Assembly: GCA_963848615.1 (NCBI GenBank)
Contig: CAWKEK010000005.1
Location: forward strand, 48,007 to 112,006
Reading direction: 5' to 3'
Source of the DNA: an uncultured Candidatus Babeliaceae bacterium
GTDB taxonomy: Bacteria; Babelota; Babeliae; Babelales; Babelaceae
DNA: 64,000 nucleotides
Below, piece after piece: positions 4,361 through 21,110 of the stretch. The first letter of the stretch is position 1. Every line of letters starts with the position of its first letter. The notes under the pieces were generated by a model that saw nothing but the letters and a program-made list of their open reading frames with translations, made no database searches and was not told where the DNA came from. The translations under genes and the position numbers were made by a program.

Positions 4361-5239
4361 TTATGCAGTTTTTGCATAAAACGATTTAAAATCTTCGTAG
4401 AGGGTGCGCGCAAGTTCGTCCATGATCATAATAGGATCAATTTCTTGAGCATCAGCTTTCTCACCCGCGCCGTCAACAGGAAATCTTTTTTGATCCAAAA
4501 TGCGTTGTGCTACTTTTGTTTGACGAAGGGTATAGGGCGCGTTTGATAGTGCTAAGAATGAACCATCTTCTGGGGCTATTTGTGCAAAGTAGATAAGCGT
4601 ATCGTCTGTGTTAGGGCGTACTAAGGTGCCGTCGGCTTTCTGGACCATCGGTGCATTAACAAGAATCATCTTGCTATTTTTAAAGCCAGCATTATGAAAT
4701 AAATGGACCATCATTTCTGCTTCAGTTGTTACCTCTGCCGGTAGGTTCTCTTTTTCTTTTTCTTGTAATGGTCGTGAGCCGCCTAATAAAACAATATATT
4801 TAAATGTATAGCCTTCATCAATGAGTTTTTTAAGATAGTTCATGCGGTAGGCTACACGCTCTTTGAGCGCACCCATTAAACCGGCATAAGTATAATCATT
4901 TTTTTTGGGTTTTATTTCGTCGATCATACCAAGTTGTTTGAGCTCTTGTATAATCGTTGAGCTGTTTTGTTGTATATCTTTGTGAACAGGGTTTGGTGCT
5001 TGTGCATCCCAGCGTTCACCTGTGCGTAAAAGATTTTTCTGGGCAAACGCATTGGCTTCTTGTAATGTTGTTATCCGTTCATTGAGTAATGCAAAAATAT
5101 TTTTTGTCGGAGCCGTAAGTTGTCCAAGCTCATGAAAGGGCTCGATATGCGCTTTGGCTTGAAACGGGTGGTGCATTACCATTAATGCAATGCTTAAAAA
5201 TGCTAAAATTGTTGTTGGAATAGCAAGCTTTTTATTCAT
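4361..5239 (-). CDS. Secreted protein, possibly YdcF/DUF218-like
   Basis: Leader LAFLSIALMVMHHPFQA. Motif order IVLLGGSRP ... TEAEMM ... RPNTDDT ... LALSNAPYTLRQ resembles DUF218. Weak by-eye call. Confidence 0.45.
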   Translation of the reverse strand: MNKKLAIPTTILAFLSIALMVMHHPFQAKAHIEPFHELGQLTAPTKNIFALLNERITTLQEANAFAQKNLLRTGERWDAQAPNPVHKDIQQNSSTIIQELKQLGMIDEIKPKKNDYTYAGLMGALKERVAYRMNYLKKLIDEGYTFKYIVLLGGSRPLQEKEKENLPAEVTTEAEMMVHLFHNAGFKNSKMILVNAPMVQKADGTLVRPNTDDTLIYFAQIAPEDGSFLALSNAPYTLRQTKVAQRILDQKRFPVDGAGEKADAQEIDPIMIMDELARTLYEDFKSFYAKTA

Positions 5240-5287
5240 GAAAATTTCCCTTAGTACTTGGACAGGCTCAGTGTGAAACGGCTGTCT

Positions 5288-6565
5288 TTAACTATGCATT
5301 ATATGATAAAACGTATATTTTACGTGGTTCATTCTACTCGTGCGCGCACGGTAGCCATATTCTTTTAAAAAATCAAAACTTAATGGCTGTATTTTATAAT
5401 GCCGGATATCCCGCAGTTGTGCAACTTTTTTTGAGCCGATCAGATGATGTGTTGATAATGAAAGAAGATTTTTATCCGTATGCTCAAAATTCATGGTAAT
5501 AGTATGAAACCCCGGAACAAGGTCCAATGACTCAATACTTTTTATACATGCCGGATAAAGTACCAATACAGGCATCGGTGAAAAGTGGTTCAGTGCCTTG
5601 CGGATCGAAGATCGTTTACGAAAGTGGCTTGGTAGGGTATACGTAGTGCAACAAAAAAAACTTTCGTGACTAAAAACATACGGGTTATTATGAACCGATA
5701 GACAAACATCCAGAACCCGTGGACCCTTTTTATCATGCATTGGCAGCGGTATAGCAAGCTCTTGTAAACTTCGTACACAATAGTGTTGCGGTGTTGAGAT
5801 AATATCAAGATTTTGTACTTTATCCCCACACGAATAAAGATTGATAATGGTCCCAAACATCGATGAACTTATCATCGGCTGCATTTTTTCTTTATATAAA
5901 GGCGTTGCACATAAAATGGCTGTGTCTATATACAGTTGCTGATGCGGATACTGTTTTTGTATAGTGGGCAGGTGCGCAATAAGTTGCCCGCCATGGCTAT
6001 GTGCATAAAGCTCAAATTTTATGCGGGCGTTGGGGTACTGTTGCTGCAAATTATTTTTTATTGCAAGTAAACTTTCATACAGATAACCGGACTCTTTATT
6101 CCGCTTGCGTTCACTTAATGCTCCAGACCAACCAAAGGTATAATAGTGGTATGCGCCTTGGCGGTTACTGACACAGCGGTCGGTACGTTCGAATGTGCGT
6201 ATAATCGTGATAGCGGCTTTTTCATCGGTTAATGGATGTGAAAGAGGCACCATAATCTGATTGGTGATATCGGTAATGCCTAAATCTAACACAACGTCAG
6301 AATGGTGTAAAAAAGGGTGCTTGCGTGCTGATGCCATTGCCCGTTCGATCAGCGAGTTTTCACTATATTGATCGCGCCAGCTTGCTGGAATATCGATAAA
6401 AAAACAGCCTGCAAGTACGGTGCCATGAATAAAAACACGTGCAGTAACAAGGGTATGTGTTGGGTCTACTGGTATTGAGAGTTCAGGCGCAGGTTGTAGA
6501 GCGGCAACAACTTTACTAAGCACCATAATAAGAAAAAAAAGAGAAATTTTGAGTACGCGCTTCAT
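5288..6565 (-). CDS. Secreted alpha/beta-hydrolase (lipase/esterase-like)
   Basis: Start moved to MKRVLKISLFFLIMVL (ATG at 6565). Nucleophile-elbow-like LYAHSHGGQL. No other family assignment possible by eye. Confidence 0.55.
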   Translation of the reverse strand: MKRVLKISLFFLIMVLSKVVAALQPAPELSIPVDPTHTLVTARVFIHGTVLAGCFFIDIPASWRDQYSENSLIERAMASARKHPFLHHSDVVLDLGITDITNQIMVPLSHPLTDEKAAITIIRTFERTDRCVSNRQGAYHYYTFGWSGALSERKRNKESGYLYESLLAIKNNLQQQYPNARIKFELYAHSHGGQLIAHLPTIQKQYPHQQLYIDTAILCATPLYKEKMQPMISSSMFGTIINLYSCGDKVQNLDIISTPQHYCVRSLQELAIPLPMHDKKGPRVLDVCLSVHNNPYVFSHESFFCCTTYTLPSHFRKRSSIRKALNHFSPMPVLVLYPACIKSIESLDLVPGFHTITMNFEHTDKNLLSLSTHHLIGSKKVAQLRDIRHYKIQPLSFDFLKEYGYRARTSRMNHVKYTFYHIMHS

Positions 6566-6928
6566 AACAAACCTAACAATAACGCGCAAACCAACGCGTC
6601 CAGACCAACCACTATAAATTGTATAATAGAATTAATGGGGTGTCAAAAATAACTTATGTTTTTTGAAGAAATAAGTGGTAGAAATGTAAGTTACCTATCC
6701 TGCGTGTCACCCCCGATAACTCTTGCAGAGGGCTTTACGCTCAAAACTAGCTCGATACAGCACGTCGTGCAACATCTCGCGTCGACCCGGCGTTGCCGGG
6801 TTTGACAGTTGAGGCTAACTTGATGATAGTATAGACGGTCTGTAATTTATCCGCAGCTATTAGCCAGAATACGCTCTTTTTGTTACGCTAATAGTATAAA
6901 AATATTATATAATTAACGCAGCTTTTCT

Positions 6929-7600
6929 ATGGTTTCTTTAAAGAATTTCTCTGTTTCAGCCCAAACTGTCCCTATTGTTCATGGTATCACTCATGATTTT
7001 ATCAATGGTCAACTGGTGATCATCTCAGGTGATAATGGCTCAGGTAAAAGTACTCTGGCCTGTTCACTCATGGGCCTTTCTGGATATACCTGCAGTGGTG
7101 AAATACTACTTGATGGCGTTGATATTTCTGGTTGGTCTGTTGAAAAACGTGCCCAAGCAGGTATATTTCTTGGATTTCAGCACCCCATAGAAGTTCCTGG
7201 TCTGCCGATTAAAACGTTTTTGCACTATGCATACAGGTCCTGTAATCCCCAAACTGCACTGAGTGTTGAAGATATTAATCAAAAAATAGAAAAAGCTTTC
7301 GAGCTTGTCCGGTTGCCAGCAGATTATATCGACCGCAATGTGCATGAAGGCTTTTCTGGCGGGCAAAAAAAGCGCTTTGAGCTAGTGCAAATGCTCGTTC
7401 TGGAGCCACGCATTATTATTCTTGATGAGCCAGATTCTGGCCTAGATACTCAAGGTGTTTCTGCGTTAATTAACGTTATTAAAGAATATCGGGCTACCCA
7501 TCAAGATGCTATTTTTATACTTATTACGCATAATACTCAATTGCCACAGCAGCTCAATGCAGACCATACGGTAACCATGTCGGCAGGTAAGCTGCTATGA
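6929..7600 (+). CDS. sufC: Fe-S cluster assembly ATPase SufC
   Basis: ABC ATPase with Walker A GDNGSGKST, signature FSGGQKKR and Walker B IIILDEPDSGLD. Overlaps sufB by 4 nt. Confidence 0.9.
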   Translation: MVSLKNFSVSAQTVPIVHGITHDFINGQLVIISGDNGSGKSTLACSLMGLSGYTCSGEILLDGVDISGWSVEKRAQAGIFLGFQHPIEVPGLPIKTFLHYAYRSCNPQTALSVEDINQKIEKAFELVRLPADYIDRNVHEGFSGGQKKRFELVQMLVLEPRIIILDEPDSGLDTQGVSALINVIKEYRATHQDAIFILITHNTQLPQQLNADHTVTMSAGKLL

Positions 7601-8931
7601 CCCTTAATGGCGCCTGTCTTACAGCAGAGCTTGTTAAAAATATTTCACATGAAAAAAAAGAACCCGCATGGATGCTGGCCTTTCGCCAAGGGGCTCTGGA
7701 ACGGTTTCATGAGAAAAAAATCCCCAGCTGGGCTGCAGACCTGCGTGGTCTGGATTTATCTGATATCACCATGTATGTTAAGCCGTTGGTCAGTGAAAAG
7801 CGTTCATGGCAAGATATCCCACAAGATATAAAAACCACCTTTGAGACCCTGGGAATTCCCCAAGCAGAACAAAAATTTCTTGCCGGTGTCGGCGCACAAT
7901 TTGAATCTGAAGTTATTTATAAAAGTTTAAAACAGGAATGGGCAGACAAGGGTGTACTATTCTGTTCCATGGAAAGCGCCGTACGTGACCACCCAGAACT
8001 GGTTAAAAAATATTTTTCTACCGTTATTCCACCAGATGATAATATTTTTGCAGCGCTCAATTCTGCTTTTTGGTCAGGCGGTAGCTTTGTCTATGTGCCA
8101 CCACAGGTGCAGGTAACCATGCCACTACAGGCTTATTTTAGAATTAATCAACAGCAGATGGGTCAGTTTGAACGAACACTGATTATTGCAGATGTTGGTT
8201 CTTCGGTTCACTATGTTGAAGGCTGCAGTGCGCCGATCTATTCACGCGCCTCATTGCACAGTGCTGTGGTTGAAATTGTTGCGCTTGAAAATGCGCAGGT
8301 GCAATATACTACCATCCAAAACTGGGCACCCAATGTCTATAACTTGGTCACCAAGCGTGCCGTTGCCTACCGTAATGCACGGGTATCGTGGGTTGATGGC
8401 AACTTTGGCAGCGCCGTTACTATGAAATATCCCTGCGTTGTTCTTAAAGAACCGGGTGCACAGGGACAAGTATTGTCACTTGCTGTTGCAGGTGCGCATC
8501 AGCACCAAGATGCCGGTGCTAAAATGATTCATCTTGCTCCGTATACCAGCTCAACTATTGTCTCGAAATCTATTTCACAAAAAGGTGGTCGCGCGTCATA
8601 TCGCGGACTTGTTAAAGTCGTACCATCTGCGCATCATGTAAAATCACGCGTACAGTGCGATGCATTATTACTTGATGATTATTCACGTTCAGACACCTAC
8701 CCCACCGTGACAGTTGCCACGCATGATGCTGATATCGGCCATGAGGCCTCTGTTAGCAAAATTTCAGACGCGCAACTTGAATACCTTTGCAGTCGTGGGC
8801 TCACCCGTCAACAGGCTTTGGGCCTTGTTATGACCGGCTTTGTTAGTGCTTTTGTTGAACAGCTGCCTATGGAATATGCTGTTGAAATTAATCGCTTAAT
8901 CTCTGCAACCATGGAAGGCTCAATTGGATAA
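7597..8931 (+). CDS. sufB: Fe-S cluster assembly scaffold SufB
   Basis: 444 aa containing YVEGCSAP, NWAPNVYNLVTKR and the conserved C-terminal EASVSKISDAQLEYLCSRGL. Confidence 0.92.
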   Translation: MTLNGACLTAELVKNISHEKKEPAWMLAFRQGALERFHEKKIPSWAADLRGLDLSDITMYVKPLVSEKRSWQDIPQDIKTTFETLGIPQAEQKFLAGVGAQFESEVIYKSLKQEWADKGVLFCSMESAVRDHPELVKKYFSTVIPPDDNIFAALNSAFWSGGSFVYVPPQVQVTMPLQAYFRINQQQMGQFERTLIIADVGSSVHYVEGCSAPIYSRASLHSAVVEIVALENAQVQYTTIQNWAPNVYNLVTKRAVAYRNARVSWVDGNFGSAVTMKYPCVVLKEPGAQGQVLSLAVAGAHQHQDAGAKMIHLAPYTSSTIVSKSISQKGGRASYRGLVKVVPSAHHVKSRVQCDALLLDDYSRSDTYPTVTVATHDADIGHEASVSKISDAQLEYLCSRGLTRQQALGLVMTGFVSAFVEQLPMEYAVEINRLISATMEGSIG

Positions 8932-9502
8932 GATAGTCGATAGAATTATTTTACGTAATATCTCTGGCGTGCACGAATTTTTTGTAACGCATGATATGCA
9001 GATCACTATTTTTTTAAACACTATTTTGGCAACCGAACTAGAAATTCGTGTGATATGCAACACGCCCGGCACCCATGCAGCTATTGGCATTATACATAGT
9101 CAGAAAGCTCATGACACTCTTAAGCTCACCACGCTTCAACAACATCAGGCGCCACACACCAGCAGCACGGTTACCGTGAAAGGGGTTTTGTATGACCATG
9201 CAACCGTTAATTACGCCGGCAAAATTTACGTAAGTCCAGACGCCCGTCACACCAAAGCAGAACAAAAAAGTCATATGCTGTTGCTCAGCTCAACGGCTCA
9301 TGCCCAAGCAGTGCCAGCATTAGAAGTTTTAACAAACGATGTCCAGTGCAAGCATGGCAGCGCGATTGCGGGTATCAACCCGAACGTGCTTGAATACGTG
9401 GCCTCACGCGGTATATCCCCTGCAGATGCGCAAGATATCTTAGTGCAAAGTTTTTTTCTTTGTATGTTAGAAGACAAAACGGCAGAAGAATTTTTCAAAT
9501 AA
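8924..9502 (+). CDS. sufD: SufD-like protein (short, C-terminal beta-helix part only)
   Basis: TTG start overlaps sufB by 8 nt. PALEVLTNDVQCKHGSAIAGINPNVLEYVASRGI matches the SufB/D C-terminal signature. Only 192 aa. Confidence 0.7.
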   Translation: MDKIVDRIILRNISGVHEFFVTHDMQITIFLNTILATELEIRVICNTPGTHAAIGIIHSQKAHDTLKLTTLQQHQAPHTSSTVTVKGVLYDHATVNYAGKIYVSPDARHTKAEQKSHMLLLSSTAHAQAVPALEVLTNDVQCKHGSAIAGINPNVLEYVASRGISPADAQDILVQSFFLCMLEDKTAEEFFK

Positions 9503-9504
9503 AC

Positions 9505-10194
9505 TTATGGATTCGGTACGGCTTGGTCATCATGATCTTCGCGGGATTTATATTGATTTATCGCGTCAGCTGTTCTTGGCGATAATAGATCAAGTTGATC
9601 TTCTCTATACACTTCAACCAGATGGTTAGCATAAATTTCAACTCTGCCAAAATCGTTAGGATCACGCTGAGTGCATGCAATTATTCCCGTTTCATTTACT
9701 TGAGTCACACCAAGAGTTTTAAACGATGTTGCATCTTGCCCTCGCGCTATGACTACAACATGGTTTGGGTTTTCTGGGTTATAATCACAATTGACTTGAC
9801 AAAAACTTGCTCTAACTTTGCCTTTTAAATAAATCTTTTTTACAGGCTCAGCAAAATCAGCAAGAAAAATTTCGGGGCCTTGTGGTCTTGGGCTTTTAGG
9901 AGAGGTCAAAGGGAGTGGTGAAGCCTGTCTTATCGAAAAATCGTCAAAACCAGTTTCACGCGTGGGCGATCCGATATCGCTCAACGTCGGTGAAGCTGCT
10001 TGCCCTTGGTCGGAATCGCTTTTAGAGCTTGGGCTGACTACCGATGGTGCTTTCGCCGGAGACTGACCAATAAATAAGCCACTTAGGCGTTTTAAAAGCT
10101 GTTTACGAGCATCTTTGTGTGTAGGTTTTTTTTCGTCCATTCCATGCAGACTTGATATCAGCACTAAGCTCAATAAGAGTGGATATTTTGTCAT
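9505..10194 (-). CDS. Secreted protein with Ser/Pro-rich linker, unknown function
   Basis: Start set at MTKYPLLLSLVLISSLHG (ATG at 10194). Low-complexity SPSSKSDSDQGQAASP region, then a roughly 110-aa C-terminal domain. Confidence 0.5.
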   Translation of the reverse strand: MTKYPLLLSLVLISSLHGMDEKKPTHKDARKQLLKRLSGLFIGQSPAKAPSVVSPSSKSDSDQGQAASPTLSDIGSPTRETGFDDFSIRQASPLPLTSPKSPRPQGPEIFLADFAEPVKKIYLKGKVRASFCQVNCDYNPENPNHVVVIARGQDATSFKTLGVTQVNETGIIACTQRDPNDFGRVEIYANHLVEVYREDQLDLLSPRTADAINQYKSREDHDDQAVPNP

Positions 10195-10303
10195 TGGCGT
10201 ATCCCTTTTTTCATCATTTTTTGTGACTGTCTGACTAAGCCTTATTCTATGAATGTCGTACGAATAAAACAAGACTTTTTGCGTAAGTAGAAAATATTTT
10301 TTC

Positions 10304-10723
10304 TTAACACTCGGTTAATTGTTCTGCTAACTGAATTTTTCCGTCACCATAAAAAATATTAGGAGTCTCGCCCGCGGTGTAGATATTTACCTTTACATCA
10401 ATGTCTGAACTTACCCTGATGGTAAGAACCCCACCTTGACGCTCTTCCATGAGATTAAAAAAAGAGGCAGTTTCTTTAACTTCATGTTCTACGGTAATCA
10501 TATCACGTGCCATTTTGTGTGGCGCTTTAGTAACAAGAAGCGATCCTAAAAAATGGGCAACTCGTATTTCTTGAATCGTCTTGGGATATGTTTTTGTACC
10601 ACGATTGAAACCGTCGTCTGGTGTATTGTCTGCTGAATGCACAGCCATCTCCATGCCATGAGCGTAACTCATCATCACCAACAACGCACCTAGAAGATAT
10701 TTGAACATACTCTTTCCCTTCAT
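10304..10723 (-). CDS. Small secreted protein X (cassette gene 2)
   Basis: Leader MFKYLLGALLVMMSYAHG. A decayed second copy lies at 11803-11993. Confidence 0.55.
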   Translation of the reverse strand: MKGKSMFKYLLGALLVMMSYAHGMEMAVHSADNTPDDGFNRGTKTYPKTIQEIRVAHFLGSLLVTKAPHKMARDMITVEHEVKETASFFNLMEERQGGVLTIRVSSDIDVKVNIYTAGETPNIFYGDGKIQLAEQLTEC

Positions 10724-11117
10724 AAATAGGATTTATACAAGTAATATTAAGAACCCGCTACTTGCGCGGGAACCAATCATATAAGGCAGGCTCGCCAGCC
10801 AAAGAATATTTCCCAGTTTTGATTTTATTAAATAAATATTCTCGCCATTCTTTATCATCAATACGGTCGAAATCTTTGTATAATTTCCAAAGCGGGTCAG
10901 ATACTTCAACTTTGTCTTCTGATATTATTATAGCTACTAAATGTTTGGCATCTTCAAGTATACTAAAATAATATTCAGCTTCTTGTATATTAGCACAAGC
11001 GCTGATCTTTAATAAAATATCTTCGATATGCTTTGGCAAATGTAAAAGCATATGCTCTTTCTTTACTGAAATATTTTCTGCCTCAATTTCTTTTATTAAT
11101 TTTTTTATTCTTTCCAT
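10652..11117. repeat. Segmental duplication, copy 1 (5' end of gene X plus whole paralogue A)
   Basis: Aligns colinearly with 11917-12379. About 135 nt at 10759-10895 have only 2 mismatches; the rest is much more diverged. Confidence 0.85.
10758..11117 (-). CDS. Cytoplasmic protein, paralogue A of 12020..12379 (cassette gene 1)
   Basis: Start set at MERIKKLIKEIE to match the paralogue MEKIKQLIKEIR. The C-terminal 43 aa (WKLYKDFDRIDDKEWREYLFNKIKTGKYSLAGEPALYDWFPRK) are identical in both copies. Confidence 0.55.
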   Translation of the reverse strand: MERIKKLIKEIEAENISVKKEHMLLHLPKHIEDILLKISACANIQEAEYYFSILEDAKHLVAIIISEDKVEVSDPLWKLYKDFDRIDDKEWREYLFNKIKTGKYSLAGEPALYDWFPRK

Positions 11118-11125
11118 AACAATCA

Positions 11126-11343
11126 CTATCGCATCTTTCTTATTGGCTGCAAATGCCATACTTCTTTATTCGCTGGATTATAAACTAACTCCCAGTCAAC
11201 CGTTTCATATATAAAAAATCCTAGCTTTTCGGTATCTGGGCAAATAAGTTTTCCTTAATAATAATGCTAAGATCCCAACAATCTATTTTTGTTTCAGAAA
11301 TGCCTACTGAAACAAAACAACATTCAAAATCCGCTATTTCCAT
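11126..11343 (-). pseudogene. Possible frameshifted small gene
   Basis: ATG at 11343 gives MEIADFECCFVSVGISETKIDCWDLSIIIKENLFAQIPKS* (stop 11221-11223). A second frame continues EKLGFFIYETVDWELVYNPANKEVWHLQPIRKMR* (stop 11126-11128). Confidence 0.25.
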
Positions 11344-11359
11344 ATGTACTTCATAGTAG

Positions 11360-11668
11360 CTAAGCTTCAAAGCTTATATATTCTGGATAGTTATTATCAC
11401 GATAGGCTTTCATTGCCTTTACCAACACTCGAACCAGCATGTTTTGAAAAACTTTATCTTGCATGTTTTCATCAATATAAGGTCTCTCCAAGTCTATAGA
11501 AAAATCAGGAATTTTATTGATATTATCTTTATGCACATGAAGCAATTTTTTGTGATTCTCAATACCAATAAAAAAAGCCAACGGGCCATGTGCTGTTTCA
11601 GTCATAGCATGGTAGTAATGAATGCTATTTGCAAAATTAACTTTTTTTATTTCAATATATAACGCCAT
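11360..11668 (-). CDS. Hypothetical cytoplasmic protein Y
   Basis: Start set at MALYIEIKKV (ATG at 11668). No leader. An internal segment of about 70 nt is repeated at 11725-11795. Confidence 0.5.
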   Translation of the reverse strand: MALYIEIKKVNFANSIHYYHAMTETAHGPLAFFIGIENHKKLLHVHKDNINKIPDFSIDLERPYIDENMQDKVFQNMLVRVLVKAMKAYRDNNYPEYISFEA

Positions 11669-11715
11669 CTTTTTAATACCTTGCAGTTTCAAGCTTTGCT
11701 TCATGTTTAGGTTTT

Positions 11716-11993
11716 TTAATTTCAGAATTATAAGGCCTCTGCAAGTCTATAGAAAAATCAGGAATTTTATTGACGTTATCTTTATGCACATAAGGCAGTT
11801 TCTTAACACTCTGGCAATTGTTGAGCGAAATTAATTATTTTGCCACAATAAAAAACTTTTGGTGATGCACCTGCGGTCTAGATGTTTAAATGTACCTGTT
11901 GGTCTGACTCTGTCTGCATGCCATGAGCGTAGCTGATCACCAAAAACGTACCTATAAGATATTTGAACATACTCTTTCCCTTCATAAATAGGA
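11716..11993 (-). pseudogene. Decayed fragments of gene Y (11716-11800) and gene X (11803-11993, middle roughly 225 nt deleted)
   Basis: 11725-11795 aligns to 11475-11545. 11803-11915 aligns to 10304-10400, and 11917-11993 aligns to 10652-10723. No intact ORF. Confidence 0.7.
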
Positions 11994-12379
11994 TTTATAT
12001 ACGTAATATTAAGAACTCGCTACTTGCGTGGGAACCAATCATATAAAGCAGGCTCGCCAGCCAAAGAATATTTCCCAGTTTTGATTTTATTAAATAAATA
12101 TTCTCGCCATTCTTTATCATCAATACGGTCGAAATCTTTGTATAATTTCCAAAGAGTATCGGGTACGTCTATTTTGTCTTCTGATATTATTATAGAGATT
12201 TGACCTTGAACTTCTTCTAAAATACTAAAATAATGATCTGCTTGTCTTATATTTGTACAAACGCTGATCTTTAATAAAATATCTTCGATGTGCTCTGGCA
12301 ACTGTAAAAGCGCCAGTTCATTTTTTTCAGGCATAACTTCTATTCGAATTTCTTTGATTAATTGTTTTATTTTTTCCAA
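11917..12379. repeat. Segmental duplication, copy 2
   Basis: Colinear with 10652-11117 (see copy 1). Confidence 0.85.
12020..12379 (-). CDS. Cytoplasmic protein, paralogue B of 10758..11117
   Basis: 119 aa. The N-terminal two thirds diverge from paralogue A; the C-terminal 43 aa are identical. Confidence 0.6.
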   Translation of the reverse strand: MEKIKQLIKEIRIEVMPEKNELALLQLPEHIEDILLKISVCTNIRQADHYFSILEEVQGQISIIISEDKIDVPDTLWKLYKDFDRIDDKEWREYLFNKIKTGKYSLAGEPALYDWFPRK

Positions 12380-12487
12380 AAGAACTCCGTGTTTTTTTTA
12401 AGCCCTTGCAAATGCCATACATCTTTACCTATATTGCATATAGTCTATCACTTGCTGAAAATAGTTCACTCGGCTAAGCTTTAATGT

Positions 12488-13711
12488 ATGGATAGTTCAC
12501 TCATAAAACAAGATTTTCCGTTACTGCGCAACTCAAGCATCGTCTATTTAGACTCAGCCGCAACATCACAAAAGCCTGATGCTGTCGTAACCGCGCTTAC
12601 CGATTTCTACCAAACCAGTAACGCACCGGTTCATCGTGGCATATACGCATTAGCAGAATCGGCAACCCAGCAGTATGAAGCTGCTCGCCGCGCTGTTGCA
12701 GCGTTTATTAATGCAGAGCCACAAGAAATTGTCTTTACTTCAGGAACTACCGATAGTATTAATATGGTCGCCCACGGCTGGGCCGCCTTTAATTTAAAAG
12801 CTGGCGACGAGATTGTTTTGCCAGAATCTGAGCATCACAGTAATCTCTTACCATGGCAGCAACTGAGTATAACACATGGTGTTGTGATTAAATACGTGTC
12901 ACTTACCAGTGATTTTAAATTAGATATTGAAGATTTTTTAAAGAAAATTACCCCCAAGACAAAATTGGTCACGTGTGCACTCAGCTCACATATTTTTGGC
13001 TCTATGCCACAAGAATATCTTCAGGCAATCTGCGCCAAAGCGCACGAAGTTGGTGCACGGGTGTTGCTTGATGCAGCCCAAGCTATCGGCCACATGCCGA
13101 TTGATATGCAGCTACTTGGCGTAGACTTTTTAGCTTTTTCGGGCCATAAACTTTTTGCCCCCACAGGCATTGGTATACTGTATAGTAATAAAAAAATATT
13201 TTCGCAGCTGGGTGTTTACCGTACCGGTGGCGGCATGGTGCACAGTGTACAGCTTGGTTCAAACCAGCTTGACTGTATGGACTGGAAAGAGATGCCCTAT
13301 AGACTAGAAGCGGGTACTCCGCCCATTGCACAAGCAGTTGGGTTGCATGCGGCAATAGATTATTTTAAGCAAAAGATACATTATACAAAACTTTCTGAAC
13401 ATGAAAAAATGCTCACCAGTGCGCTTAAGGAGCATTTAAAAAAACATGATGATATCGTTATTATGCAACCTGAATATGCCAACGCGGTACCTAACCATCT
13501 TGTCTCTTTTTACAGTAAAAAATTTCACGCGCATGATATTGCCGCTTGGCTTGGTCAGCATACTATTGCCGTGCGTGCCGGCCACCATTGCTCACAGCCG
13601 ATTCATGAACGGTTTGGCATTGCAGCCTCTGTGCGTGCAAGTTTTCACGCGTATACCACTGTGCATGACATTGACGCTTTTGGTAAAGCACTTCATGCTC
13701 TATATACATAA
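12488..13711 (+). CDS. sufS: Cysteine desulfurase SufS (class V aminotransferase)
   Basis: PLP-lysine motif FSGHKLFAPTGIG, catalytic-Cys loop RAGHHCSQP, N-terminal YLDSAATSQKP. Confidence 0.9.
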   Translation: MDSSLIKQDFPLLRNSSIVYLDSAATSQKPDAVVTALTDFYQTSNAPVHRGIYALAESATQQYEAARRAVAAFINAEPQEIVFTSGTTDSINMVAHGWAAFNLKAGDEIVLPESEHHSNLLPWQQLSITHGVVIKYVSLTSDFKLDIEDFLKKITPKTKLVTCALSSHIFGSMPQEYLQAICAKAHEVGARVLLDAAQAIGHMPIDMQLLGVDFLAFSGHKLFAPTGIGILYSNKKIFSQLGVYRTGGGMVHSVQLGSNQLDCMDWKEMPYRLEAGTPPIAQAVGLHAAIDYFKQKIHYTKLSEHEKMLTSALKEHLKKHDDIVIMQPEYANAVPNHLVSFYSKKFHAHDIAAWLGQHTIAVRAGHHCSQPIHERFGIAASVRASFHAYTTVHDIDAFGKALHALYT

Positions 13712-13719
13712 CTAGATAG

Positions 13720-15230
<1,511 letters not shown>

Positions 15231-20159: not shown

Positions 20160-21110
20160 ATGCGTAGAACTTTACAGATAACTTTATCTATACTTATTTT
20201 TGTTTCATTAATAAATAGCCTTCACGCGCGCGTCGACATATCATCTTGGAGTCATTATAAAATTATTGGTTATATTGTGAAAGCCTTAAGTAAGCCAGTA
20301 ACAAAAGGGCTGTTGGTTGATTCAAGGCCATTAACTATATCAAATCGATTACTACTGTATGGCCCTCCAGGCAATGGAAAGACCACATTAGCCCGGGAGA
20401 TAGCAGTTGCCGCACAGTGTGAATTCGTTCATATACGAGCATCATCGATAGTGACCAAGTATCAGGGCAGTGGCTCTGAAAATATGCAAAAAGAGTTGAT
20501 GAAAGCATTTGATAAAATTCTTGAAGGTGATCGCCCTGTCGTTATATTTATAGATGAAGTTGATGCCATAGCTGCGACGGGGAATGGGGAATCATCGCGG
20601 CTTGAATATACTAATGCGGCTCAAGAATTGTGGCAATATCTAGATACCTGTAAGAATGATCCGCGTGTTTTTATAATTTGTGCCACTAACCAGTATGAAA
20701 AATTAAATTTGGCTTTTGTGAGTCGTTTTCCAGAGCGGCAGAGATTAAAAATTGATCAACCAGATAAGGAAATCAGGAAAACTGTTTTATTAGGCCTCAT
20801 GGAAAGATATGATTTTACATTATATGACCGTATTGTAGATGATTTGGCACAGCATAGTAATGGCATGAGTATTCGTGAATTAGAAAATTTTATTTATGAG
20901 CTTAAAGTAAGCTTTGAATTTGAAGCAATATTATCTGATAAAGAGGTGATAGAAAAGATAAAAGATTACCCGCGTGGATATAAAGACCCCAATGAGATAT
21001 CTAAAAAGCCTTCCAAAAGGGATATCTACGATAAAATTCACATGCTTTCTGCGATTGTTTCTATGGTGAATAATGGAAGAATAATCGCAAAAGAATTTGG
21101 ATTTATATAA
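20160..21110 (+). CDS. Classical-clade AAA+ ATPase with N-terminal TM anchor or signal
   Basis: Leader LQITLSILIFVSLINSLHA. Walker A LLLYGPPGNGKTTLA, Walker B VIFIDEVDAI, second region of homology ICATNQYEKLNLAFVSRF. Confidence 0.85.
   Translation: MRRTLQITLSILIFVSLINSLHARVDISSWSHYKIIGYIVKALSKPVTKGLLVDSRPLTISNRLLLYGPPGNGKTTLAREIAVAAQCEFVHIRASSIVTKYQGSGSENMQKELMKAFDKILEGDRPVVIFIDEVDAIAATGNGESSRLEYTNAAQELWQYLDTCKNDPRVFIICATNQYEKLNLAFVSRFPERQRLKIDQPDKEIRKTVLLGLMERYDFTLYDRIVDDLAQHSNGMSIRELENFIYELKVSFEFEAILSDKEVIEKIKDYPRGYKDPNEISKKPSKRDIYDKIHMLSAIVSMVNNGRIIAKEFGFI

Follow-up and report, generated by a model that had tools for sequence, protein, structure and literature searches.

We analysed a 64,000-nucleotide (nt) stretch of DNA from an uncultured Candidatus Babeliaceae bacterium (assembly GCA_963848615.1, contig CAWKEK010000005.1, positions 48,007 to 112,006), hereafter the window, in which the suf cluster is split upstream of sufS. 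The segment from about 10291 to 12444 is very probably an array of orphan polymorphic-toxin/immunity modules that has decayed; its site of insertion is the 5ʹ end of sufS in this Babeliaceae genome. It holds two modules in tandem, each with a truncated toxin C-terminal region (CT) that lacks a delivery region and is followed by an intact immunity gene, together with a probable second immunity family, Y. The original prediction, which likened the locus to polymorphic effector/immunity loci, was right about the kind of locus but not about the roles: it coupled a cytoplasmic protein of about 120 amino acids (aa), here called A, with a secreted protein, X, encoded downstream, whereas the partner of A is the toxin encoded upstream.

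The two immunity genes, A1 (10758-11117) and A2 (12020-12379), lie on the minus strand and each encode a CdiI-like protein of 119 aa. A1 was classified by its precomputed assignment to Pfam family PF28101 together with gene context and a motif, and A2 (P0003), which starts with TTG, carries the PF28101 assignment as well; the earlier statement that none of the proteins matches a nameable family therefore fails for the ~120-aa proteins. Scans of the island proteins against Pfam, NCBIfam and PADLOC returned no significant family. The two proteins are 74% identical over 119 aa (E 4e-57), and no third copy was found in the 64-kb window. Among 5.8 billion proteins the A family has only seven members, all precomputed PF28101.1 (the two of the window and five others), and a metagenome scan with the A profile added one locus only. 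The most likely start of A1 is the ATG at 11117, given a family length of 119-121 aa and the occurrence of TTG starts in the family, one of them in the A homologue of locus L007. A 133-aa version of A1 starting at 11159 was rejected because it overlaps the toxin remnant described next, because codon 7 is a stop in the A2 equivalent and because of the family length.

Upstream of A1, positions 11126-11361 (minus strand) hold a dead remnant of a CdiA-CT tRNase domain of the class known from Escherichia coli NC101, with no delivery region, as judged by tblastn and by reading in three frames. The original prediction had seen a frameshifted small gene at 11126-11343; the frameshift is real, while the span reaches 11361 and the "gene" is this toxin remnant. 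In tblastn searches, the C-terminus of the 758-aa protein of L007 matched window positions 11254-11135 at 65% identity over 40 aa (E 4e-12), and the toxin of L012 matched the same region at 77% over 22 aa. Read from 11361 to 11126 in two frames, the remnant gives …SYYEV…IIIKENLFAQIPKS up to a stop codon and then GFFIYETVDWELVYNPANKEVWHLQPIRKMR up to another; it has an in-frame TAG at 11221-11223 in addition to the frameshift. It keeps the C-terminal third of the nuclease, WELVYNP…WHLQ, with its E, H and Q residues. The central segment, NGFKFSEYYY..LWNNGR.APS, which would carry the equivalent of Arg200, is unrecognisable, and nothing of the toxin is left upstream of the nuclease domain. Arg200 and His248 are thus not found intact in one open reading frame (ORF) in the window copy, which is a pseudogene. 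Between the end of the remnant and the A1 ATG lie 8 nt, equal to the toxin-immunity spacing in L007. Upstream of A2, a stub at 12367-12444 (minus strand), recognized by tblastn of 12426-12391 and frame reading, corresponds to the final ~17 codons of this toxin domain (…NIGKDVWHLQ…); it overlaps the A2 start and is cut off exactly where homology upstream of sufS begins, that is, at the right edge of the insert. With a decayed remnant before A1 and a stub before A2, both modules appear to be orphan units of a dead toxin and a live immunity gene.

The nature of the toxin is apparent from loci in other genomes in which A homologues stand beside intact toxin domains. In L007-L011, the A homologue (P0004 in L007) is separated by 8 nt from an upstream protein of 758 aa that bears a signal peptide, and in L012 the homologue P0007 lies 42 nt after a 2037-aa protein; in L026 and L016 the neighbour of the A homologue is an orphan CT whose nuclease domain is complete, and the A homologues of L015 and L017 are orphans without a toxin. 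The immunity gene is thus found directly downstream of its cognate toxin domain in L007, L012 and L026/L016, as it is beside the remnants of the window. The 758-aa and 2037-aa proteins resemble each other only in their last ~210-230 residues. The final ~80 residues of the L007 toxin match the CdiA-CT of E. coli NC101 (PDB 5I4Q_A) with an E-value of 6.6e-15, and the active-site residues Arg200, Glu236, His248 and Gln250 are kept in the domains of L007, L012 and L026. CdiA-CT NC101 is an RNase of the BECR fold that binds EF-Tu and cuts the 3ʹ acceptor end of tRNA, and it requires Arg200 and His248 to be active (PMC5737660).

The proteins that carry these domains are of unfamiliar build. NC101-type toxin domains occur on two unrelated scaffolds (L012, 1534-9958; L007, 7716-9992), and neither the 758-aa protein of L007 nor the 768-aa and 2037-aa proteins of L012 matched NCBIfam or the PDB. 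The 2037-aa protein has a DUF637 match (E 1.4e-7), the sequence AVDNNFL ~270 residues from its end and a PT-VENN match so weak (E 0.0042) that it fails the Pfam cut-off; the 768-aa ORF upstream of it gave no POTRA/ShlB match. The scaffolds of L012 and L007 may be undescribed delivery systems. As to the organism behind L007, an AAA-ATPase gene of the window (20163-21071) is 52-53% identical to two of the three tandem AAA-ATPase genes beside the L007 toxin locus (4754-7634), and this likeness hints at a related organism. In L026, a metagenomic locus with an A homologue, we also noted, at 1456-2228 and 4773-7219, split transposase-like ORFs and a 532-aa protein with a 116-aa protein immediately behind it, apparently one more toxin-immunity pair.

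We compared the A family with CdiI of E. coli NC101, in which Asp84 contacts Arg200 and His248 of the toxin and Arg85 contacts toxin Asp220 (PMC5737660). The prototype of PF28101 was assumed to be CdiI-NC101, and all PF28101 calls are precomputed assignments. The sequence of CdiI-NC101 was recovered through an orphan NC101-type CT/cdiI pair on the Salmonella plasmid CP074295.1. This pair (L025, 2414-3076) consists of a CdiA-CT 70% identical to 5I4Q_A and a cdiI matching 5I4Q_B at E 1.9e-29; it sits on a conjugative IncF plasmid, and both genes are annotated only as hypothetical protein. In the alignment of the seven A-family members the motif DFDRIDD, with D84-R85, is invariant, and even P0007, at 43% identity, keeps LWKLY.DFDRIDD. 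Aligned by hhalign, the A family and CdiI-NC101 are colinear over 74 columns (27-102 against 28-101), and HLD84R85DDFY of CdiI-NC101 falls on DFD84R85IDD of the A family, although this alignment is weak (E 7.6e-4). An AlphaFold2 model of A is all-helical with a predicted local distance difference test (pLDDT) score of 92. On the combination of Pfam assignment, gene context and motif, we accept the A proteins as probable homologues of CdiI-NC101.

The insertion is best seen from the suf genes. On the plus strand, sufC (6929-7600; NCBIfam E 1.8e-57), sufB (7597-8931; E 6.5e-197) and sufD (8924-9502; E 2.9e-38) are separated from sufS (12488-13711; E 3.5e-134) by ~3 kb in which all ORFs lie on the minus strand, just as the original prediction had placed them. 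A search with SufD found two metagenome-assembled genomes of Babeliaceae (Dependentiae/TM6), L002 and L003, at 73% and 70% identity. In L003 only 72 nt separate sufD from sufS, so this adjacency exists in Babeliaceae and is probably the ancestral state there; in L002 the interval is taken up by a gene homologous to that of the Ser/Pro-rich secreted protein described below and by an HflK/SPFH-like gene unrelated to the cargo of the window. The guanine-cytosine (GC) fraction falls to 0.30-0.35 over 10800-12400, against 0.42-0.49 in the suf genes. An accessory insertion, as had been proposed, is thus borne out by the short junction in L003, the different cargo in L002 and the GC drop.

One gene of the gap has a different history. 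The Ser/Pro-rich secreted protein (9505-10194, minus strand; an ORF of 229 aa from the ATG at 10194) has no Pfam, NCBIfam or PADLOC family, and a 233-aa protein with 30% identity occupies the same place beside sufD in L002; it is absent from L003. Because its homologue adjoins sufD in L002, this gene is older syntenic cargo common to the window genome and L002, and it stands outside the toxin/immunity array; the original prediction had listed it in the island. Everything else in the insert is peculiar to the window genome. The left border of the inserted array is marked at 10235-10290 (plus strand) by a remnant copy of the sufS 5ʹ end, from about -17 to +30 (ATGAATGTCGTACGAATAAAACAAGA), matching the sufS 5ʹ end of L002 at 41/50 positions and that of the window's own sufS at 39/52. 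An equivalent sufS-start remnant of ~50 nt lies at 11318-11363 in L002, to the left of that genome's own cargo, and in both genomes the remnant sits between the Ser/Pro-rich gene and the variable cargo. At the other end, homology upstream of sufS with L002 and L003 begins at 12445-12447. The sufS-start remnant and the beginning of this homology place the edges of the window-specific insert at ~10291 and 12444. The presence of the remnant in two genomes with different cargo suggests that the sufS 5ʹ end is a recurrent insertion point, possibly a site-specific one; one ancestral insertion followed by replacement of the cargo is the other explanation suggested by the same remnants.

Other features of the neighbourhood were noted in passing. 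An ogt-type gene for a methylated-DNA-protein-cysteine methyltransferase (151-157 aa, TIGR00589 E 7e-30) lies between sufS and trpS in L002 (13822-14295) and L003 (11908-12363) and is missing from the window, where the sufS-trpS gap is 32 nt (13711-13744). SufD of the window, only 192 aa long, aligns to the SufD models solely at positions 124-270 of 275, their C-terminal core, and this short form is kept in L002 (194 aa) and L003 (197 aa).

Within the array, the modules have been duplicated and have partly decayed, as had been predicted. Three pairs of repeats were found: 10674-10973 and 11936-12235 at 90% identity, 11467-11551 and 11720-11804 at 87%, and 10300-10408 and 11799-11907, the 3ʹ end of X, at 71%. 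X itself (10304-10723, minus strand) is an intact ORF of 139 aa with an N-terminal signal peptide (…SYAHG|M), and its second copy, X2 (11803-11985, minus strand), is a pseudogene in which the signal peptide and the final ~38 codons survive. With 183 nt against the 420 nt of X, X2 has lost 237 nt in frame and carries a TAC to TAG nonsense change; the internal deletion described in the original prediction is therefore real, and its size is 237 nt instead of the ~225 nt given there.

The mosaic structure of A1 and A2 reflects recent gene conversion or recombination, as the original prediction had held. The first 75 codons of A2 have diverged from A1, and the C-terminal 44 residues are identical; in the last 132 coding nt there are two differences, both synonymous. 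The near-identity runs on through the 34-nt spacer into the signal peptide of X, giving a tract at 10690-10892 (minus strand; 135 nt of the A1 3ʹ end, the spacer and the first ~34 nt of X) with its second copy at 11952-12154 (minus strand). The tract copies differ at 6 of 203 sites, compared with 56 of 225 upstream (3% against 25%). A maximum chi-square test placed the breakpoint at 10892/12154 with a value of 41.4, which was reached in none of 2000 permutations. The synonymous divergence (dS) is 0.088 in the tract and 0.613 upstream (Fisher p = 0.005), with a nonsynonymous divergence (dN) of 0.245 in the N-terminal part; over the same amino acids, the distant homologue in L007 gives a dS of 1.25. 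The identical 3ʹ block is thus the product of a genuine recent exchange. In part, the conserved C-terminus of A is also a trait of the whole family, which conserves a motif aligned to Asp84-Arg85, the toxin-contacting residues of CdiI-NC101.

Over the A1 stop codon (10754-10770) lies a GC-rich hairpin, CCCGCGCAAGTAGCGGG then TTCTTAATAT, which is weakened by substitutions in the A2 copy, CCCACGCAAGTAGCGAG (12016-12032). Placed between the immunity gene and X, it may act as a terminator or an attenuator. Apart from this hairpin, a promoter and terminator scan gave nothing better than shuffled sequence.

Y (11360-11668, minus strand) belongs to a family of ~100-aa proteins and has 102 aa; the ORF, of 114 aa, extends to 11704, and the start is probably at 11668 because homologues align from residue 13. 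A fragment of Y, equivalent to residues about 52-79 of the 114-aa ORF, lies at 11720-11804 (minus strand), where it runs straight into the stop codon of the X pseudogene; as the original prediction had recognized, it derives from Y, with 87% nt identity to 11467-11551 and a tblastn match of 79% over 28 aa. At E<=1e-3 we found 24 representative homologues of ~100 aa. Members of this family always either come after a common C-terminal domain of ~105 aa (…EHE..ES…), unlike that of the A partners, or stand in tandem arrays. The proteins bearing the domain measure 176, 210 and 999 aa, with the Y homologue 9-10 nt downstream; this domain is always followed by a Y-family gene. The proteins of L018 and L019 share the junction PQGPE..PEKEKTKTDT and then have different C-termini. 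A constant junction with a variable C-terminus is a hallmark of polymorphic toxins. This gene context points to Y as a putative immunity protein directed at a second, different toxin domain. In L024, three Y paralogues stand among small genes arrayed in tandem. The loci L018 (561-2659), L019 (515-2762), L021 (1993-4992) and L024 (6285-8303) form a candidate second polymorphic-toxin system without a name. The model of Y (pLDDT 86) has a beta-sheet and a helix; 22 Y-family members compared with Pfam gave scattered chance matches only, and the partner domain, searched with the 176-aa protein of L018 and the 999-aa protein of L021, gave no Pfam or PDB match.

Several observations weigh against reading the segment as a decayed toxin/immunity array. 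The likeness of A to the solved CdiI is drawn from the Pfam assignment, the gene context and one motif, and the PF28101 matches of P0004, P0002 and P0006 are marked "weak" (those of P0007 and P0005, at E<=1e-5, are unmarked). The hhalign probability for A and CdiI-NC101 is only 25%. With Foldseek, which the original prediction had proposed as a check, the A model found nothing in the PDB at E<0.1, and 5I4Q_B (CdiI-NC101), a four-helix club, was not among the best 50 matches. The hidden Markov model (HMM) of the A family does not match 5I4Q_B, and with this HMM and with single members the PDB sequences gave chance matches only. For Y, the immunity role comes from gene context, and the protein has neither a family nor a fold match (Foldseek of its model against the PDB gave nothing at E<0.1). 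Finally, of a genome measuring roughly 1.3 Mb only 64 kb are in view, and "orphan" is to be read as orphan in the 64-kb window.

A first alternative is that the whole array, immunity genes included, is non-functional debris heading for deletion in a reduced genome. Four of the eight elements are pseudogenes or fragments, and the low GC of the array, a promoter-like scan equal to shuffled sequence and the TTG start of A2 fit with a relic. However, A1, A2 and Y all have full-length ORFs, TTG is an ordinary start codon in the A family (L007), and gene conversion has kept the DFDRIDD-bearing part of A identical in both copies. In addition, the ratio dN/dS is about 0.35-0.4 both between A1 and A2 (variable half) and between A1 and its homologue in L015; because of this ratio in the variable half, both A copies, with their intact ORFs, appear to have evolved under purifying selection. 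We therefore regard a pure relic as unlikely.

According to a second alternative, A1, A2 or both provide working self-immunity against an intact NC101-class toxin encoded elsewhere in the genome, and the organism is both attacker and defender. The window covers 64 kb, compared with the 1.3 Mb of the complete chromosome of the relative L002, full-length toxins are present in related metagenomic loci, and both immunity ORFs are intact with signs of purifying selection. On the other hand, tblastn with both full-length toxins matched only the remnants in the window, and in every complete locus the immunity gene directly follows its toxin, whereas A1 and A2 follow dead stubs. Self-immunity of this kind is, in our judgement, rather improbable. 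As neither CdiB (Omp85/TpsB) nor a full-length CdiA (TPS domain, FHA repeats, DUF637, VENN) is encoded in the 64-kb window, what the window holds is the debris of a polymorphic-toxin module and not a two-partner system of the contact-dependent growth inhibition (CDI) kind.

The third alternative is the model of the original prediction, in which cytoplasmic A and exported X form the functional unit, as immunity and effector or as chaperone and secreted effector. A and X are adjacent in both copies, with the 34-nt spacer and a ribosome-binding site kept. Against this, X matched only itself among 5.8 billion proteins and has no family match in Pfam, NCBIfam or PADLOC, other A homologues pair with an upstream toxin, X2 is dead while A2 is intact, and no X follows the A homologues of L015, L007-L012 and L026. 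Because the A gene of L015 (92% identical) shares the spacer and then diverges exactly at the start of X, X is not a conserved partner of A, and an A-X unit is very improbable. X is a passenger, peculiar to the window genome, that the present reading leaves unexplained.

The possibility of an assembly artefact, raised in the original prediction, was checked against public data. Independent contigs match 9400-10723 at 100% (L001), and another independent contig matches 11728-11974 at 100%, spanning the joint between the Y fragment and the X fragment; the read depth of ~2x yields short contigs only and none across the whole duplication. Although no read set covers the whole island, a duplication created by assembly can be set aside as scarcely credible, because 25% of positions are unlike between the copies over 225 nt, their flanks are not the same and the independent contigs reproduce 9400-10723 and 11728-11974 exactly.

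Taken as a decayed array of orphan modules, the locus resembles several known systems. Its closest counterpart is CdiA-CT/CdiI of NC101 (5I4Q/5I4R; PMC5737660): the linked toxin domain is homologous and keeps the four active-site residues, A has a similar length, an all-helical model, a colinear alignment and the D84-R85 toxin-contact motif, and the immunity gene comes 8-9 nt after the toxin stop. It departs from NC101 in that the window toxin is a dead remnant only, the likeness of A to CdiI is marginal and the scaffolds of the related loci are not CdiA/CdiB of the E. coli type. Orphan cdiA-CT/cdiI modules (Poole et al. 2011, reviewed in PMC9086364) likewise consist of truncated toxin C-terminal pieces without a start codon or delivery region, followed by intact immunity genes, in tandem and with signs of recombination or transfer. 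Unlike those modules, the array has no full-length cdiBAI or other full-length toxin locus upstream, being placed inside the suf cluster with sufD and the Ser/Pro-rich gene on one side and sufS on the other, and its toxin pieces (a frameshifted remnant and a 17-codon stub) are more decayed than typical orphan CTs, which start at VENN.

Orphan CT/immunity modules and immunity-only islets have also been documented in genomes without the weapon (PMC9086364; PMC7400221). Examples are the orphan CdiI islet of S. Typhi (PMC7400221, PMC9086364) and loci of P. aeruginosa with up to 15 orphan immunity genes. As in such islets, more than one specificity appears to be kept without a cognate delivery system, presumably as a defence against the toxins of other cells; the differences are that the host belongs to the Dependentiae instead of being a free-living or enteric proteobacterium and that the islet also carries X. 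The constant and variable modules, and the recombination between repeats that makes and deletes modules, recall the orphan effector-immunity arrays of Rhs and type VI secretion systems (T6SS) (PMC3967940, PMC10539506), but no Rhs/YD repeats or T6SS components were found in the family scans here.

On this basis, we propose that A1 and A2 would neutralise incoming NC101-class tRNases of competitors, for example of bacteria sharing the protist host or habitat. The D84-R85 of the DFDRIDD motif would plug the active site of the nuclease as Asp84 and Arg85 of CdiI-NC101 do, and Y would neutralise a second toxin class likewise. The array may have arisen from complete toxin-immunity loci through loss of the delivery part, and recombination between repeated modules may have reshaped it later, producing the tandem duplication, the ~200-nt conversion tract, the internal deletion of X2 and the Y fragment. 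A wider reading, which is conceivable but on balance doubtful, would join all these parts: Dependentiae would wage contact- or secretion-mediated warfare with NC101-class, EF-Tu-dependent tRNase toxins on scaffolds without recognisable relatives (the 758-aa protein with a Sec signal; the 2037-aa protein with DUF637 and no detectable CdiB), immunity islets would be kept by selection, and the sufS 5ʹ end would be a recurrent, possibly site-specific hotspot.

This kind of locus is well known; what is new here is the host lineage, the protist-dwelling Dependentiae, the site inside the housekeeping suf cluster and the unfamiliar scaffolds in the related loci. A literature search for Dependentiae together with polymorphic toxins or immunity found no report. 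Through the analysis, four "hypothetical" genes of a phylum with poor annotation receive names and functions that can be tested, the range of the NC101-type toxin/immunity pair is widened far beyond the Enterobacteriaceae, and a worked example is provided of orphan modules that decay and are homogenised by gene conversion. If the role of Y is confirmed, the Y family and the C-terminal domain of its partners would be a new toxin/immunity pair. For the biology of these organisms, the array suggests that bacteria thought to be sheltered in protists still meet, or recently met, toxin-armed competitors.

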